Positions 47,091 through 55,845 of a stretch of DNA of 64,000 bases are shown in pieces; within the stretch, counting starts at the first letter, position 1; each line of letters opens with the position of its first letter. The stretch lies in the IMG/VR virus record IMGVR_UViG_3300045391_000822, positions 1 through 64,000 of that record, one strand, 5' to 3'. Both the position numbers and the translations under genes were made by a program. The DNA is from a virus. The notes below the pieces were generated by a model. It searched no databases. It was not told the DNA's origin and worked only from the letters and a program-made list of their open reading frames with translations.

Positions 47091-47113
47091 GTTTTAAACA
47101 GAGTACGTTCTGT

Positions 47114-47195
47114 GGATCCATCGCATAATGGTATTGCAGTGGATTGTAAATCCGCCACCCTTTGGGTATTGTTGGTTCGAGTCCAGCTGGATCCA
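47114..47195 (+). tRNA. tRNA-Tyr(GTA)
   Basis: loop TTGTAAA, long variable arm; CCA not encoded. Confidence 0.88.
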
Positions 47196-47220
47196 CAGAA
47201 CGTATTCTGTAAATGTTTGA

Positions 47221-50195: not shown

Positions 50196-50283
50196 GGGTG
50201 AATGGCTGAGAGGTCTAAGGCGGCAGTCTTGAAAACTGATGAGTGTAAAAGCTCCGTGGGTTCGAATCCTACTTCACCCGCCA
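50196..50283 (+). tRNA. tRNA-Ser(TGA)
   Basis: loop CTTGAAA, long variable arm, G73, CCA. Confidence 0.93.
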
Positions 50284-50297
50284 TTGCAAATGATTAC

Positions 50298-50376
50298 GTC
50301 GAGGTCCAGTTGGGGACAGGATGCCGCTGATCACGGCCGATCAACCTGGTGGGTTCGAACCCCACACTCGACTCCA
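50298..50376 (+). tRNA. atypical tRNA-like gene (loop CTGATCA, U73)
   Basis: canonical T arm and TCCA end; 6-bp acceptor, irregular D arm, 4-bp anticodon stem. Confidence 0.5.
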
Positions 50377-50587
50377 ACATTCAAACGTTTTCGTTGGTGT
50401 TTATCTCCTTGGTACGAGCTGCGATACCAACGAAATTGTACCGAGCAGGTGTAGGTTTAACGACCGCTTCTACTTGGGCTACTACGTTGCCTATGAGCTT
50501 CCATAGTGCGCCTGTCTGCTGGAATGACGACAACGTAGCAGTTAGGGACAGGACCAAAGCGGACTTCGGGTCCGGAGAATGCTTTGG

Positions 50588-50662
50588 GGTGATAGTAGCT
50601 CAATGGTAGAGCCGTGGATTGTGGATCCACTGACGAGAGTTCGATCCTCTTCTATCACCCCA
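50588..50662 (+). tRNA. tRNA-His(GTG)
   Basis: G-1:C73, loop TTGTGGA, CCA. Confidence 0.92.
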
Positions 50663-50694
50663 AAGCGTTTTCAAGTTCCGTAAATAGTTGATAC

Positions 50695-50870
50695 GAGATG
50701 TCTTAGGGGTAACGGGAAGGACTAAGGTTGAGAATAAGAGTTAGTTCGGTGCACCGATTAACTTGATTTCGACTAAGGTGGCTTCAGCAGATAGTACCCA
50801 TCATAAGGTTGCGCGCCTTGGATACTGTAGTTTCAGGATCGTTCCCTGGTCGGTGCCCCTAAGACATTTC
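50695..50870 (+). ncRNA. orphan structured RNA A
   Basis: 17-bp terminal stem, T-arm-like hairpin tcagg-ATCGTTC-cctgg, three TAAGGT repeats, upstream CGTAAATA. Confidence 0.55.
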
Positions 50871-50875
50871 AAAGT

Positions 50876-51074
50876 ATTCTCAGAGCAGCAATGCAAAGCG
50901 AAATCAGTAAATGCCTGGTGAGTGCGCACAATCCAGAACATCGAAACAAAGTAGCTGGTGCAAGATACTAACCCGCGTAGTTGTTTGACGCGAGTACGGC
51001 ATTCTTATTGGATGTGACAGTACCGGTCTACGTTGGAGGCTCCTGGATCGTCCCCAGGTTGCTGCTCTGAGAAT
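50876..51074 (+). ncRNA. orphan structured RNA B
   Basis: perfect 16-bp terminal stem stacked on T-arm-like cctgg-ATCGTCC-ccagg. Confidence 0.55.
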
Positions 51075-51080
51075 TGCTTC

Positions 51081-51164
51081 CATAGTTGGTAGCGTTGGAC
51101 GTCGATATCCAAATAATCCTGTTGGATCCGGATCACAGGTTGGATACCAGCGTTACCAACTATG
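51081..51164 (+). other. long irregular hairpin upstream of tmRNA
   Basis: 18-bp basal stem plus tatccaa/ttggata and cctgt/acagg. Confidence 0.5.
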
Positions 51165-51560
51165 GTAGTAGGTGACCTAAAGGTTACGAGAGTGAGAAAT
51201 GAATGGCGGTAAGACGCGGGTTCGATTCCCGCCGGCTCCACCATACACGCCTTGTCTTCATGAAGCACGCCTTAACAGGACGTGTATGATGGGGCTGACA
51301 TGGATTCGATTATCGTGCTGAAGTGGACGCAACTACCCGGGCAAGCGGAGCCCGCTGACCTAGGTCAGGAATACCAAGCAAAGAAGATAAATGCTAACGA
51401 CAGCATCTTTGAGCAGCGCCTCGCGGCCTGATCACATAGTCCCTAGTAAACTGGATAGTTGATAACGATACGATTCCAGGGAGCTAGGTGGGGCCACCGT
51501 GTACCTAGTACACCTGTGTCAGAAACCTACCTTGTCAGATAGGAAGAGTGGCCCACCTCC
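51163..51560 (+). ncRNA. ssrA: circularly permuted (two-piece) tmRNA; outer ends approximate
   Basis: T arm + CGGCTCCACCA ends at 51243, GGGGCTGACATGGATTCGA starts at 51291, G3-U pair, tag ANDSIFEQRLAA* 51393-51431. Confidence 0.88.
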
Positions 51561-51574
51561 AGGTTAAGATAATC

Positions 51575-52192
51575 ATGGCTCTAAGAACGATAACGTTTGA
51601 TGATGAAGACCTAGATTCTGTCTCTAGGACAATTAATATATTGAACAGTTTCCGTGGAACGTTAAGGGCCAGGTCCGGTACGGCTACCGTGACGAGCAGG
51701 TGTAACGCTCAATACAACGCCGCAAAAGCTATCATAGAAACCAGAACTGCGTACCTGTATGGTAATTATGTACAGCGCAGATCCAGGGGTTGCTATGTGT
51801 ACATGCACTGCGAGGCCGATAGGAAACTTCATCGTGGCAAAAGTGGCGTAATCAATTTCCTTTTGGATTGCGGTGTTGAGTACATGCCCTTCTATGTAGG
51901 CAAGGGAGTAGGCTCGAGAGATATCTGCCTAGACAGAAACGAAACACACCGCAAAGTACGTCAACGACTCCAGACGTTTGGCAAAGATGTTGTAGTCAAA
52001 CGAGTTGCAGAAGATCTTTCCGAGAAAGATGCGTTAGCACTGGAATCACGATGGCTAGATGTGTTAGGACTCCGAGTGAACGGAGGAATGTTGGTAAATC
52101 TTGATGAAGGTGTGGAAACAGCTAGACGACGTGTTCTGTACAAGGAGCACCTGGTCGTTTTATCAGAATTTTACCAACATTCGGTAAAATAA
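51575..52192 (+). CDS. free-standing GIY-YIG (LEM-3-like) endonuclease
   Basis: YVYMH...PFYVGKG..R...LSEKDALALE...LVNLDEG. Confidence 0.75.
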   Translation: MALRTITFDDEDLDSVSRTINILNSFRGTLRARSGTATVTSRCNAQYNAAKAIIETRTAYLYGNYVQRRSRGCYVYMHCEADRKLHRGKSGVINFLLDCGVEYMPFYVGKGVGSRDICLDRNETHRKVRQRLQTFGKDVVVKRVAEDLSEKDALALESRWLDVLGLRVNGGMLVNLDEGVETARRRVLYKEHLVVLSEFYQHSVK

Positions 52193-52994: not shown

Positions 52995-53032
52995 GTGATT
53001 CCGTAAATAATATGGAGTCGCTTTTCAACTAC

Positions 53033-53104
53033 TTGGTGGCGAGGGCTATCGGTTACTTCCAGACTTTGAATCTGACCAAAACACCGTTGCTAATTATTCC
53101 CCAA
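53033..53104 (+). ncRNA. Y RNA-like 1 (minimal, single hairpin)
   Basis: GGTGGCGAG..GTTACTTC..TATTCCCC ends; caga-CTTTGAA-tctg hairpin. Confidence 0.7.
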
Positions 53105-53157
53105 GTAGCTGAAAAGCGATTCCGTAAATAACTGTGAAGAAGTTATCTTTGATTCTA

Positions 53158-53296
53158 GCAGTGGCGTAGCTGTGCAGTTACTTCGACTGTTAATCGAGTG
53201 GTCGCAGGTTCGAGTCCTGTCACTGCGTAAGTGGTGTAGCTCAGTTGGATAGAGCACTTGGCCGAAAGGCCGTTCCTGCAGGCGAGGGTTCCCTGC
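53158..53296 (+). ncRNA. Y RNA-like 2 (YrlA type)
   Basis: CAGTGGCGTAG..GTTACTTC, CTGTTAA loop, T arm, closed acceptor stem, D arm, GTTCCCTG. Confidence 0.85.
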
Positions 53297-53331
53297 TAGA
53301 ATCAAAGATAATTTAGACTGTTATGATGTGT

Positions 53332-53456
53332 GCGGTGGTGAAGTATACGATTCCATCTCAACCAGTGGGTCGCGGGTTCGAGTCCCGTCTATCCGTCAGG
53401 ATAGTAGATCAGTTGGTAGATCAACCGGCAATTAATCGTACACGATTGTTCCCCGC
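53332..53456 (+). ncRNA. Y RNA-like 3 (YrlA type)
   Basis: CGGTGGTGAAG..., T arm, ctatcc-gtca-ggatag, D arm, TGTTCCCCG. Confidence 0.8.
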
Positions 53457-53487
53457 ACACATCATAGCAGTCTCAGAGTTTTAGTTT

Positions 53488-53633
53488 AGCAGTGGCGTAG
53501 ATAACAGTTACTTCGCATGGAAAGCCGGTACCGTAAGGTTGCGCTAGTTCGAATCTAGCCCCTCCCAAATCTGTGGGAGGGTAGGGAAGTGGATAAACCC
53601 GCCGTAACGTTCTGTTGTCGTTTGTTCCCTGCT
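53488..53633 (+). ncRNA. Y RNA-like 4 (YrlA type, Ser-like)
   Basis: CAGTGGCGTAG..GTTACTTC, ATGGAAA loop, long variable arm, T arm, closed acceptor, D arm, TGTTCCCTG. Confidence 0.82.
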
Positions 53634-53635
53634 TT

Positions 53636-53711
53636 ACATCCATCGTCTAGAGGCCTAGGACACTGCCCTTTCACGGCAGGTACGCGGGTTCGAATCCCGC
53701 TGGGTGTGCCA
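53636..53711 (+). tRNA. tRNA-Glu(TTC)
   Basis: loop CTTTCAC, G73, CCA. Confidence 0.93.
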
Positions 53712-53782
53712 GTTTAGGCTCCTTGTTTCACGGACATGCTAGTCCGAGGTTTTGAAACTGGAACAAGGAGTCCTTCTTAGTT

Positions 53783-53890
53783 TTGCAGTGGCGTAATTAA
53801 TCGAGTTCATCGCTAATTGGATAAGCACTGGGGCTTGGTCCCAGTTTAGTGGTTCGATTCCACGCTCTCGATAATGTCTGTTCCCTGCAA
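53783..53890 (+). ncRNA. Y RNA-like 5 (arms in canonical D-anticodon-T order)
   Basis: CAGTGGCGTAA..., D arm, ctggg-GCTTGGT-cccag, T arm, TGTTCCCTG. Confidence 0.75.
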
Positions 53891-53902
53891 ATTGATTTAT
53901 GT

Positions 53903-53978
53903 GGTGCGTTAGCTCAGTTGGTAGAGCGCTGGATTGTCTATCCAGAAGTCAGGAGTTCGAGCCTCCTACGCATCGCCA
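53903..53978 (+). tRNA. tRNA-Asp(GTC)
   Basis: loop TTGTCTA (U37), G73, CCA. Confidence 0.9.
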
Positions 53979-54073
53979 AGTTTGGACCACCAGCTTGTTA
54001 ACTGAATCTGATTCATATGGCTCAGCGCGCTAGTGACCAGCTTTTTTGTAGAAGCTGGTGGTCCTACTAGTTT

Positions 54074-54189
54074 GGTAGTGGCGTAGTTAGTCGGTTACTT
54101 CTTTGCAAGAGAATGCTAGGTTCGATTCCTGGTGCGGCCGGAAGGCTGTAGGCATGGCGCCAACTACCCGACAACGTTTGTTCCCTACC
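54074..54189 (+). ncRNA. Y RNA-like 6 (YrlA type, reduced D arm)
   Basis: TAGTGGCGTAG..GTTACTTC, TTGCAAG loop, T arm, tgcggcc-ggaa-ggctgta, TGTTCCCTA. Confidence 0.8.
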
Positions 54190-54372
54190 TACCCTGTCTC
54201 TGTTTCTGCCTGACGCAGAGATACGCGCTGTCAAGTTCTTGTAGACCCGGTGGGGCCGGCACCTATGAGGATTTGACAGCGCATCTTTTTGGGGTTGGTG
54301 AGGAAGTTGAACGTCTACGAACTACCGAAGTTCGTTCTTTCATCTGTCACTCTTCACTACAAAGGAGCCAAA

Positions 54373-55845
54373 ATGGCCCACCTCAACCGTAAAGCTGATC
54401 CGCATCGTAAAGCGGTAACCAAAGAATCTGTCCTTAACAATGCTCCGTTCGAGCAACTTTCCCGTGCAGTGATGACCTGCCTGCTGTGGGAAGGTACTGA
54501 AGACGAACGCATATCCAAGCTCGTTCCCAGCGTTCCGCTGGAAGATGTAGCGTACCTGGCACGGACGGCACATGAAGATATGAAGCTGCGCCATGTGCCG
54601 CTACTCCTGGCTCGGGAAATGGCGCGCCATCCAGGTCGTGTGGAAAATCCTTCCGTCATCGCGAACACGATTGAAGCGGTTATCAACCGTCCTGATTCAT
54701 TGACGGAATTCCTGGCTATCTATTGGAAGGATGGACGTCAGCCATTGTCAGGCCAGGTAAAGAAAGGTCTGGCTCGCGCATTTGCAAAATTCAGCGAGTA
54801 TCAACTAGCGAAGTACAATCGTGATCACGAAGTGAAGTTGCGCGACGTGCTCTTCCTTTCACATGCAAAGCCGAAAGACGTTGAACCTGGTTCTGCTTTG
54901 TGGAATAAGGATGCGCGTACCAACTACAAACCAAACAAGGGGTTTGTACGCGAGTTCACGAAAGGCGAACTCCTGTATGGTCGAGTAGTTCACGATCAGT
55001 TGGTTTCCCCAGAAACGTGGGAAAACAAGCTGTCACGCGGCAAAGACAAGAAAGAAACGTTTGCTGATTTGATGAAGAGTGGTAAGTTGGGAGGCCTGGC
55101 TTTCCTGCGTAACCTGCGCAATATCAAAGAAGCCGGCATATCTAAGGATGTGGTCAATAGCTATGCAGATGTAGCCAAGGTTGATGGAATCCTGCCTTTC
55201 CAGTTCATGTCTGCGCAACGTGCAGTTCCTGAATGGGAAGATGCCATCGAGAAGATGATGCTCCGCGCAGTGGAGAACATTCCCAAACTACCAGGACGCA
55301 CGGTGTTGGTTGTGGACTTGTCGGGTTCCATGAGAGCGCAGATGGCAGATAAGTCGGGATTGGAACGTACTGATGTAGCGGCAGCATTCAGTGTTCTGTG
55401 CCGTGAACTGTGCGAGAACATTGCAGTGTTTGCTACGGCAGGTAACGACCATAGCCGGAAGCACGCTACGATAACTGTTCCGCCGCGTCGTGGATTTGCT
55501 TTGGCAGAAAAGCTGCGTGTTGGTGGAGATCAAGAAATCTATCGTCGCATTGGCCAAGGCGGTATTTTCCTTAAGCAGGTTACGGAGTTCGTTTCTGGCA
55601 CCCTTGGTGATCAAGATGTCGAACGTTGTATCGTCATCACTGACGAACAGGATACGGATATCGACGGAACTTCTGCGAAAGCAAAGTTGATCGGTAAACA
55701 CAACTACATCGTCAACATCGCGACGAACGCTCGAGGTATCGGTTACGGACGTTTCACCCATATCAATGGATGGTCCGAAGCTGTACTGAAGTTCATCGCA
55801 GCCTATGAAGCGAACGAAGAAACGATGCACAAAGGTGCAGCTTAA
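54373..55845 (+). CDS. rsr: Ro60/Rsr TROVE-vWA RNA-binding protein
   Basis: EQLSRAVMTCLLWE, LRHVP, FSEYQLAKY, KLRDVLFLSHAKP, TWE, AFLRNLRN, VVDLSGSM (MIDAS), ITDEQ, GWSE; AAGGAG RBS. Confidence 0.92.
   Translation: MAHLNRKADPHRKAVTKESVLNNAPFEQLSRAVMTCLLWEGTEDERISKLVPSVPLEDVAYLARTAHEDMKLRHVPLLLAREMARHPGRVENPSVIANTIEAVINRPDSLTEFLAIYWKDGRQPLSGQVKKGLARAFAKFSEYQLAKYNRDHEVKLRDVLFLSHAKPKDVEPGSALWNKDARTNYKPNKGFVREFTKGELLYGRVVHDQLVSPETWENKLSRGKDKKETFADLMKSGKLGGLAFLRNLRNIKEAGISKDVVNSYADVAKVDGILPFQFMSAQRAVPEWEDAIEKMMLRAVENIPKLPGRTVLVVDLSGSMRAQMADKSGLERTDVAAAFSVLCRELCENIAVFATAGNDHSRKHATITVPPRRGFALAEKLRVGGDQEIYRRIGQGGIFLKQVTEFVSGTLGDQDVERCIVITDEQDTDIDGTSAKAKLIGKHNYIVNIATNARGIGYGRFTHINGWSEAVLKFIAAYEANEETMHKGAA

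Follow-up and report, generated by a model that had tools for sequence, protein, structure and literature searches.

Between the tRNA-His gene and the permuted tmRNA of a large phage genome lie two tandem structured modules, RNA A and RNA B, which are related to each other. Each is closed by a long helix formed from its own two ends, and each carries nearly the same 5-bp/7-nt hairpin close to the 3' strand of that helix. Our leading reading, held at a probability of about 0.45, is that A and B are real, mutually related clamped modules, most probably made on one transcript with the tmRNA and then released to persist as stable passenger RNAs.

The window analysed here, a stretch of 64,000 nucleotides, covers the first 64 kb of an IMG/VR virus record that is 155.6 kb long. 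The large subunit of its topoisomerase II shares 71% identity with the counterpart in the Pseudomonas jumbo phage PaBG and 64% with the one in Lu11, and the phage is classed from its sequence as a PaBG/Lu11-like jumbo phage. An RNA island at 45.5-54 kb, lying entirely on the + strand, comprises ~20 tRNAs together with the circularly permuted tmRNA. The position given to A and B in an earlier note on this DNA, between tRNA-His and the permuted tmRNA and just after the motif TTCCGTAAATA, is correct.

Structure and relatedness of RNA A and RNA B

The two modules and their hairpins are as follows.

50695..50870, + strand: RNA A, 176 nt, delimited by its closing helix and MFE fold
50833..50849, + strand: shared hairpin of RNA A, UCAGG-AUCGUUC-CCUGG, 6 nt from the 3' strand of the closing helix
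50876..51074, + strand: RNA B, 199 nt, with a 16-bp closing helix and a multi-arm interior
51042..51058, + strand: RNA B copy of the shared hairpin, CCUGG-AUCGUCC-CCAGG, with no gap before the 3' strand of the closing helix

The closing helix of RNA A pairs 50695-50710 with 50855-50870 over 16 bp, two of them G-U, and is followed by a 2x2 internal loop and a further 3 bp. Inside this helix is a linker-free four-way junction, from which a 70-nt arm, a 47-nt arm and the 5-bp/7-nt hairpin emerge; the pair probabilities of the hairpin range from 0.5 to 0.95. The MFE is -69.1 kcal/mol (z -5.1). The minus strand folds far more weakly, at -47 kcal/mol (z -2.5), which indicates that RNA A is strand-specific and constrained at the RNA level on the + strand; this specificity comes through the G-U pairs.

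It is noted that the hexamer UAAGGU occurs in three direct copies within RNA A, at 50723, 50774 and 50804, two of them in the form ACUAAGGU. The first two copies oppose each other across arm 1, where they give a symmetric AA/AA internal loop. Beyond these three copies, TAAGGT is found nowhere else in the 3.4 kb searched.

RNA B is closed by a perfect 16-bp helix between 50876-50891 and 51059-51074, an inverted repeat with 100% complementarity. Its MFE is -70.1 kcal/mol (z -3.6), and with a z of -3.8 for the minus strand its fold is symmetric between the strands, showing no strand preference. The hairpin of RNA B is a minority conformer of ~5% ensemble probability, set against an alternative AUCCAG/CUGGAU pairing; when it is enforced, the energy is -69.0 kcal/mol, 1.1 above the minimum.

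The terminal helices, and the GG-AUCGUYC-CC hairpins of 5 bp and 7 nt placed before their 3' strands, are thus confirmed in both modules, which are separated by a spacer of 5 nt. The stems of the two hairpins differ by one pair that is altered on both sides (A-U to U-A) and by one U-G that becomes C-G, and the two hairpins are the sole representatives of their type in the 155.6-kb genome. A post-hoc test shuffled the interiors 2000 times. In 5 trials both modules acquired a 5-bp/7-nt hairpin no more than 6 nt from the 3' arm, and in none did the two loops differ at one or fewer of the seven positions. A and B are related to each other, and their common hairpin placement is not due to chance. 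The interiors are indeed unrelated, as had been claimed, and no further copy of either module exists in the 155.6-kb genome. The broader picture drawn in the earlier note, in which a common hairpin and a closing duplex frame unrelated interiors, is supported, and both modules sit within an RNA operon on the strand that is transcribed.

The absence of a convincing + strand ORF also holds. The sole candidate, of 52 aa with a TTG start, spans the A/B boundary and is not credible, and a small protein gene was accordingly rejected. Several other roles were considered and set aside. Antisense targets in the phage genome amount to chance matches of only 11-12 nt, and a CsrA-type sponge is disfavoured by a rough count in which GGA is not enriched in A and B. 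An anticodon-arm mimic would have its U33, but pyrimidines occupy positions 37 and 38. A pseudoknot between the loop and the 5' junction, of 4-5 bp in both A and B, is too short to be told from chance.

Promoter-like motif, tmRNA leader and the ~380-nt insert

The neighbourhood of A and B, all on the same strand, contains the following features.

50676..50686, + strand: promoter-like motif TTCCGTAAATA, with the start of RNA A 8 nt downstream
50693..51074, + strand: insert of ~380 nt relative to syntenic relatives, with no counterpart in L121 or L128
51077..51168, + strand: hairpin C, a conserved tmRNA-precursor leader hairpin, shared by the window, L121 and L128, among which 4 pairs differ on both sides
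51151..51522, + strand: permuted (two-piece) tmRNA with tag ANDSIFEQRLAA, found by ARAGORN and by Rfam tmRNA_permuted at 83.5 bits
51548..52192, + strand: 214-aa ORF, weakly like Seg homing endonucleases (tblastn to annotated homing endonucleases, E 3e-7 to 9e-5)
54289..55845, + strand: gene for a Ro60/Rsr-type TROVE protein (Pfam TROVE, E 5e-15)

The motif ahead of RNA A belongs to a family with a marked distribution. In the 155.6-kb genome the + strand holds ten copies of the core YYGTAAATA and the - strand none, with all copies in the first 56 kb (3213, 5772, 12613, 25573, 45519, 49888, 50678, 53001, 53122 and 55851). Several of these copies lie directly before RNA units, and each of the three exact copies of the full motif is ahead of one. 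Lu11 carries annotations of CTGTAAATA and CTGTAAATT as 'putative middle/late promoter', and TTCCGTAAATA matches CTGTAAATA; the YYGTAAATA core itself equals the core of the Lu11 element. It was also observed that the 3' arm of the closing stem of the first Y unit, described below, overlaps the next YYGTAAATA copy. Neither a sigma-70-like promoter nor an intrinsic terminator was found in 50200-51700.

Folding of the 491 nt between motif and tmRNA (z -6.9) gives three clamped modules that form independently of one another, namely A, B and hairpin C. Hairpin C appears to mark the ancestral transcript start, and it could serve as a leader or belong to the acceptor piece of the two-piece tmRNA. Its helix is ~19-25 bp long and its apical loop contains GGAUCCGGAUC. 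From this arrangement we infer that A and B would form the 5' part, the first ~380 nt, of the tmRNA transcript.

Two syntenic relatives allow the same locus to be compared. L121 is a 227-kb NCBI metagenome-assembled contig whose TROVE protein is 74% identical to that of the window and whose gene order is the same, namely the topoisomerase I gene, tRNAs, tmRNA, Y array and Ro60 gene; L128 is a contig of 3.9 kb. In both, tRNA-His is followed by GTTCCGTAAATA, then by 8-9 nt, then by TGCTTCCATAGTTGG (hairpin C) and the tmRNA. The distance from motif to hairpin C in these relatives is the distance from motif to the start of RNA A in the window. Since L121 and L128 join the motif straight to hairpin C and the tmRNA, A and B are most simply a lineage-specific insert of ~380 nt. 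In a more distant relative, L125, with a TROVE protein 51% identical, the tmRNA lies close behind an ATAAATA-type motif, and A, B and hairpin C are all lacking. The insert is therefore missing from two syntenic relatives and one more distant relative, which makes it dispensable for the tmRNA operon. The insert junctions, when compared with L121 and L128, show no target-site duplication. A MITE-like element was considered and rejected; the 16-bp inverted ends are present, but each module is single-copy and lacks such a duplication.

The 214-aa ORF, directly after the tmRNA and ~480 nt downstream of A and B, constitutes a second insert, as L121 has no homologous stretch there. It carries an FYVGKG motif, and searches of Pfam and PHROG gave no match. 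On these comparisons of sequence, the tRNA/tmRNA region is clearly mosaic between relatives.

Other parts of the cluster yielded observations of their own. A tRNA-like gene outside the annotation, at 50297-50377 of the window, corresponds to L121 7009-7094 with 77% identity. Its features include the acceptor stem GUCGAG/CUCGAC, a CCA within the gene itself, a T-arm of canonical type (GUGGG-UUCGAAC-CCCAC) and, as anticodon-like loop, CUGAUCA (GAU); ARAGORN and Rfam tRNA miss the gene, probably because of its odd D region. The 211-nt spacer from this gene to tRNA-His (50378-50588) folds into multiple hairpins (z -2.7), and in its place L121 (7095-7369) and L128 have a different stretch of ~275 nt, conserved between the two and containing GGCGUAG. 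The spacer may be another orphan RNA, swapped between relatives. The segment 48022-49196, with tRNA-Lys and tRNA-Leu(UAG), has no counterpart at the syntenic position of L121 and is a further indel in the mosaic cluster.

Long leader-trailer clamps are general in the cluster, according to an inverted-repeat analysis that found them around tRNA-Tyr, tRNA-His, the Y units and hairpin C. At the tRNA genes the duplexes extend the acceptor stems, with 23-nt arms for tRNA-Tyr (47098-47210) and 24-nt arms for tRNA-His (50575-50672). The extension of the tRNA-His acceptor stem is seen in L121 too.

The modules were also looked for elsewhere. When the region was compared by blastn with 50,697 phage records, its tRNA-like and tmRNA pieces alone gave matches. 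A scan of IMG/VR for the shared hairpin with its flanks gave five matches, apparently by chance and in unrelated sequence, none with the surrounding RNA architecture; a scan of IMG/VR for permuted tmRNA gave one unrelated AT-rich phage that has neither A nor B. TROVE protein searches of IMG/VR and JGI metagenomes did not find close relatives. Homologue searches with the TROVE protein and a thioredoxin-like protein led to L121, L122, L123 and L125 and to none closer, and a scan with the hairpin C sequence returned L127 (the same sequence as L121), L128 and two chance matches. Homologues of A or B were found neither in the phage records, nor in the IMG/VR scans, nor among the collected loci, so that the sole covariation is that between A and B.

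Comparison with tRNA halves, Y RNAs and T4 stable RNAs

The earlier note had proposed that A and B each use a half-tRNA, as tmRNA does. According to this reading, the hairpin and helix would imitate the stack of T-arm on acceptor stem, and RNase P, the CCA-adding enzyme or a tRNA-binding factor would handle an RNA with variable cargo. The geometry stands in part. A 5-bp/7-nt hairpin is stacked coaxially on the helix of the RNA ends, directly so in B (where it has ~5% ensemble probability), and this is the feature that A and B share with the tRNA-like domain of tmRNA and with tRNA minihelices. The T-loop, the acceptor stem and the CCA do not stand. The T-loop motif is defined by a reverse-Hoogsteen pair between U54 and A58; the loops AUCGUUC and AUCGUCC of A and B have A54 and U58, which removes this pair, and all 27 of the 27 genuine T-arms in the genome read UUCGA/G. 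The closing helices measure at least 16 bp, as opposed to the 7 bp of an acceptor stem, and in RNA A the internal loop lies at the place of the acceptor stem. Neither a discriminator nor CCA follows A or B, the 3' flanks being AAAGU and UGCUU, although CCA is encoded by the phage tRNA genes read here (tRNA-His and the tRNA-like gene at 50297-50377). Even at E<=10, A and B go undetected by the covariance models for tRNA and tmRNA, and ARAGORN misses them as well. Compared with the tRNA-like domain of tmRNA and with minihelices, A and B hence lack the T-loop consensus, the 7-bp acceptor stem, the discriminator, the CCA and a model match, and the hairpin is, as far as its sequence tells, a T-arm in geometry only and not a true T-arm or T-loop. 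Bacterial RNase P takes minihelix and hairpin substrates largely by shape, and the half-tRNA reading is kept for this reason as a minor rival; the top 7 bp of the RNA B helix do start with G, and T4 rnaC shows that phages build such RNAs. Overall we regard half-tRNA mimicry as improbable.

A second known class of small RNA lies close at hand. About six helix-closed, Y-RNA-like units occupy 53011-54200, directly upstream of the Ro60/TROVE gene. That gene lies 3.2 kb downstream of A and B, and the stretch between holds the tmRNA, the ORF, tRNAs and the YrlA-like units. The homologues of the TROVE protein number in the thousands, and some bear the source name '60 kDa SS-A/Ro ribonucleoprotein'. 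The unit scaffold, GUGGCGUAG ... GUUACUUC ... UUGUUCCCY, matches 113 stretches in IMG/VR viral contigs, and none of these 113 loci has a hairpin and closing helix of the A/B type. Rfam YrlA matches two of the units significantly, though below its gathering score, 53336-53458 with 50 bits (E 5e-10) and 53197-53258 with 45 bits (E 2e-8), and the units of this phage carry GGCGUAG in a bulged helix. In the paper that defined YrlA (Chen et al. 2014, PMC4201824), GNCGAA(N)G near the 5' end was described as the likely site of Rsr binding. The same paper describes several Y RNAs at bacterial Ro60 loci, notes that bioinformatic searches missed some of them, and gives YrlB of M. smegmatis a possible T-arm.

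A and B might on these grounds be divergent non-YrlA Y RNAs, comparable to YrlB, that bind the phage Ro60 and tether it to other factors. Like YrlA and YrlB they are small, closed by their 5' and 3' ends (a hallmark of Y RNAs), more than one per locus and near a Ro60 gene, and the T-arm-like element that some of those RNAs carry has a likeness to the A/B hairpin. The 3' half of the hairpin (GUUCCCUG in A) also resembles the UUGUUCCCY ahead of the closing strand of the Y units. The closing stem and this GUUCCC(U/C) before the 3' strand are the sole likeness of A and B to those units. Against it, GNCGAA(N)G, GUGGCGUAG and GUUACUUC are all absent from A and B, whose closing helices are continuous, with no bulged helix, and which also lack the permuted tRNA module of YrlA and YrlB. 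The YrlA model (RF02553) recovers the true units at the E values given above and finds nothing in A or B at E<=10. The YrlA-like units of the phage sit at 53.0-54.1 kb, directly upstream of the Ro60 gene. In relatives, Ro60 and the Y array are retained although A and B are missing. A role as Y RNAs is on balance doubtful, to about the same degree as that of tRNA halves.

By analogy, the closest counterpart of A and B is the rnaC/rnaD pair of phage T4 (species 1 and species 2). Unexplained small stable RNAs are a long-familiar component of phage tRNA clusters, T4 species 1 and 2 and T5 RNAX among them. T4 rnaC (species 1 RNA, 139 nt) and rnaD (119 nt) occupy the end of the tRNA cluster as tandem neighbours with 6 nt between them, and adjoin segB, a gene for a GIY-YIG homing endonuclease. 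The likeness extends to several features: both pairs are tandem non-coding RNAs on the tRNA strand within a phage tRNA cluster, with a spacer of 6 nt in T4 and 5 nt here, near a GIY-YIG or Seg-type endonuclease gene, and both are without a qualifying Rfam match. In the fold of T4 rnaC, a closing helix encloses a long arm, a second arm and, beside the 3' strand, a canonical T-arm. This four-way layout is the same as that of RNA A; RNA B fits it only with the hairpin enforced. The differences lie in the details. T4 rnaC has a UUCGAAU T-loop and a short acceptor-like stem, in contrast to the AUCGUYC loops and 16-bp clamps of A and B, which at 176 and 199 nt are also longer. The likeness is architectural only, as BLAST of A and B against all collected loci, T4 included, gave nothing at E<=1. 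The T4 RNAs have been shown to be stable in vivo, whereas the expression of A and B is deduced from sequence.

With regard to novelty, A and B match no Rfam family at gathering thresholds, nor at E<=10 in a cmscan of 50660-51160. The further claim of an undescribed ncRNA class was overstated, because T4 rnaC already has the closing helix, the two arms and the T-arm near the 3' strand.

Proposed processing and biological meaning

We propose that A and B entered the phage lineage as one insert of ~380 nt between the middle/late-type promoter (TTCCGTAAATA) and the tmRNA precursor, and that they would make up the initial 380 nt of the tmRNA transcript. Each module would fold alone, as a multi-arm body clamped by a 16-bp duplex, and structure-specific host nucleases would excise both from the precursor. 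The leader-trailer stems of rRNA operons and of phage T7 early RNAs are cut by RNase III, and the 16-26-bp duplexes flanking each RNA gene of the cluster are like them. By this analogy the long clamps suggest excision of the RNase III type, and RNase III would, to judge from duplex length, be the likeliest agent. Exonucleases would then trim back to the duplex, and A and B would persist as small stable RNAs. The GG-AUCGUYC-CC hairpin, stacked on the closing helix, could provide a common recognition or tertiary-contact handle. In kind, and by analogy to T4 species 1 and 2, A and B would then be passenger stable RNAs of a phage tRNA/tmRNA cluster, and neither tRNA halves nor YrlA-type Y RNAs.

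The main rival to this proposal is that the 380 nt are a neutral or selfish insert, acquired by recombination and functionless beyond being tolerated in the tmRNA leader, with clamps that merely prevent the disturbance of tmRNA folding. Cassette shuffling associated with promoters, or co-conversion with the Seg-like homing endonuclease gene, could be the route of entry. Such an origin agrees with the absence of the modules from L121, L128 and L125, with the second insert 480 nt downstream, the Seg-like ORF, which is also absent from L121, and with the mosaic state of the tRNA cluster; RNA B is moreover equally foldable on both strands, as a DNA palindrome would be. It accounts poorly, however, for a common hairpin that A and B keep with one pair changed on both sides, for G-U pairs in RNA A that work only in + strand RNA, and for 16-bp helices that are perfect or near-perfect, against decay. 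The single-copy state and the lack of a target-site duplication also argue that the insert is not MITE-like. We consider a purely neutral insert unlikely, though it is the strongest of the competing explanations. A role in cis is more remote still. A and B might act as the leader of the tmRNA precursor and tune the timing, stability or processing of the two-piece tmRNA; they do lie between promoter and tmRNA with no terminator, and the helix of RNA B directly abuts hairpin C. Relatives nonetheless make the same tmRNA without A and B, and the modules are self-contained and predicted to be unpaired with the tmRNA. Among all the readings weighed here, we give this one the least credence.

A more far-reaching reading is that A and B represent a modular class of phage RNAs, of which they would be the first two examples, with a constant 3' handle (the GG-AUCGUYC-CC hairpin on its long closing duplex) recognised by a factor and an interchangeable multi-arm cargo. 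We hold this to be rather improbable. If true, the handle would be bound by one phage or host factor, for example the phage Ro60, RNase P or a tRNA-modifying enzyme; it would be an analogue of the T-arm that has evolved away from the T-loop consensus, and the RNAs may have a role in RNA surveillance or counter-defence beside the phage tmRNA and Y RNAs.

On present evidence A and B are dispensable and unconserved, and they are for this reason of moderate interest and not a new RNA class. Within 9 kb this jumbo phage accommodates tRNAs, a two-piece tmRNA, a Ro60 gene accompanied by a Y-like array, and several further orphan RNAs. A and B extend this set by two putative passenger RNAs that are clean, strongly folded, related to each other and set in a defined promoter context, and their clear-cut presence or absence among relatives would make them a convenient case for studying the roles of passenger RNAs.
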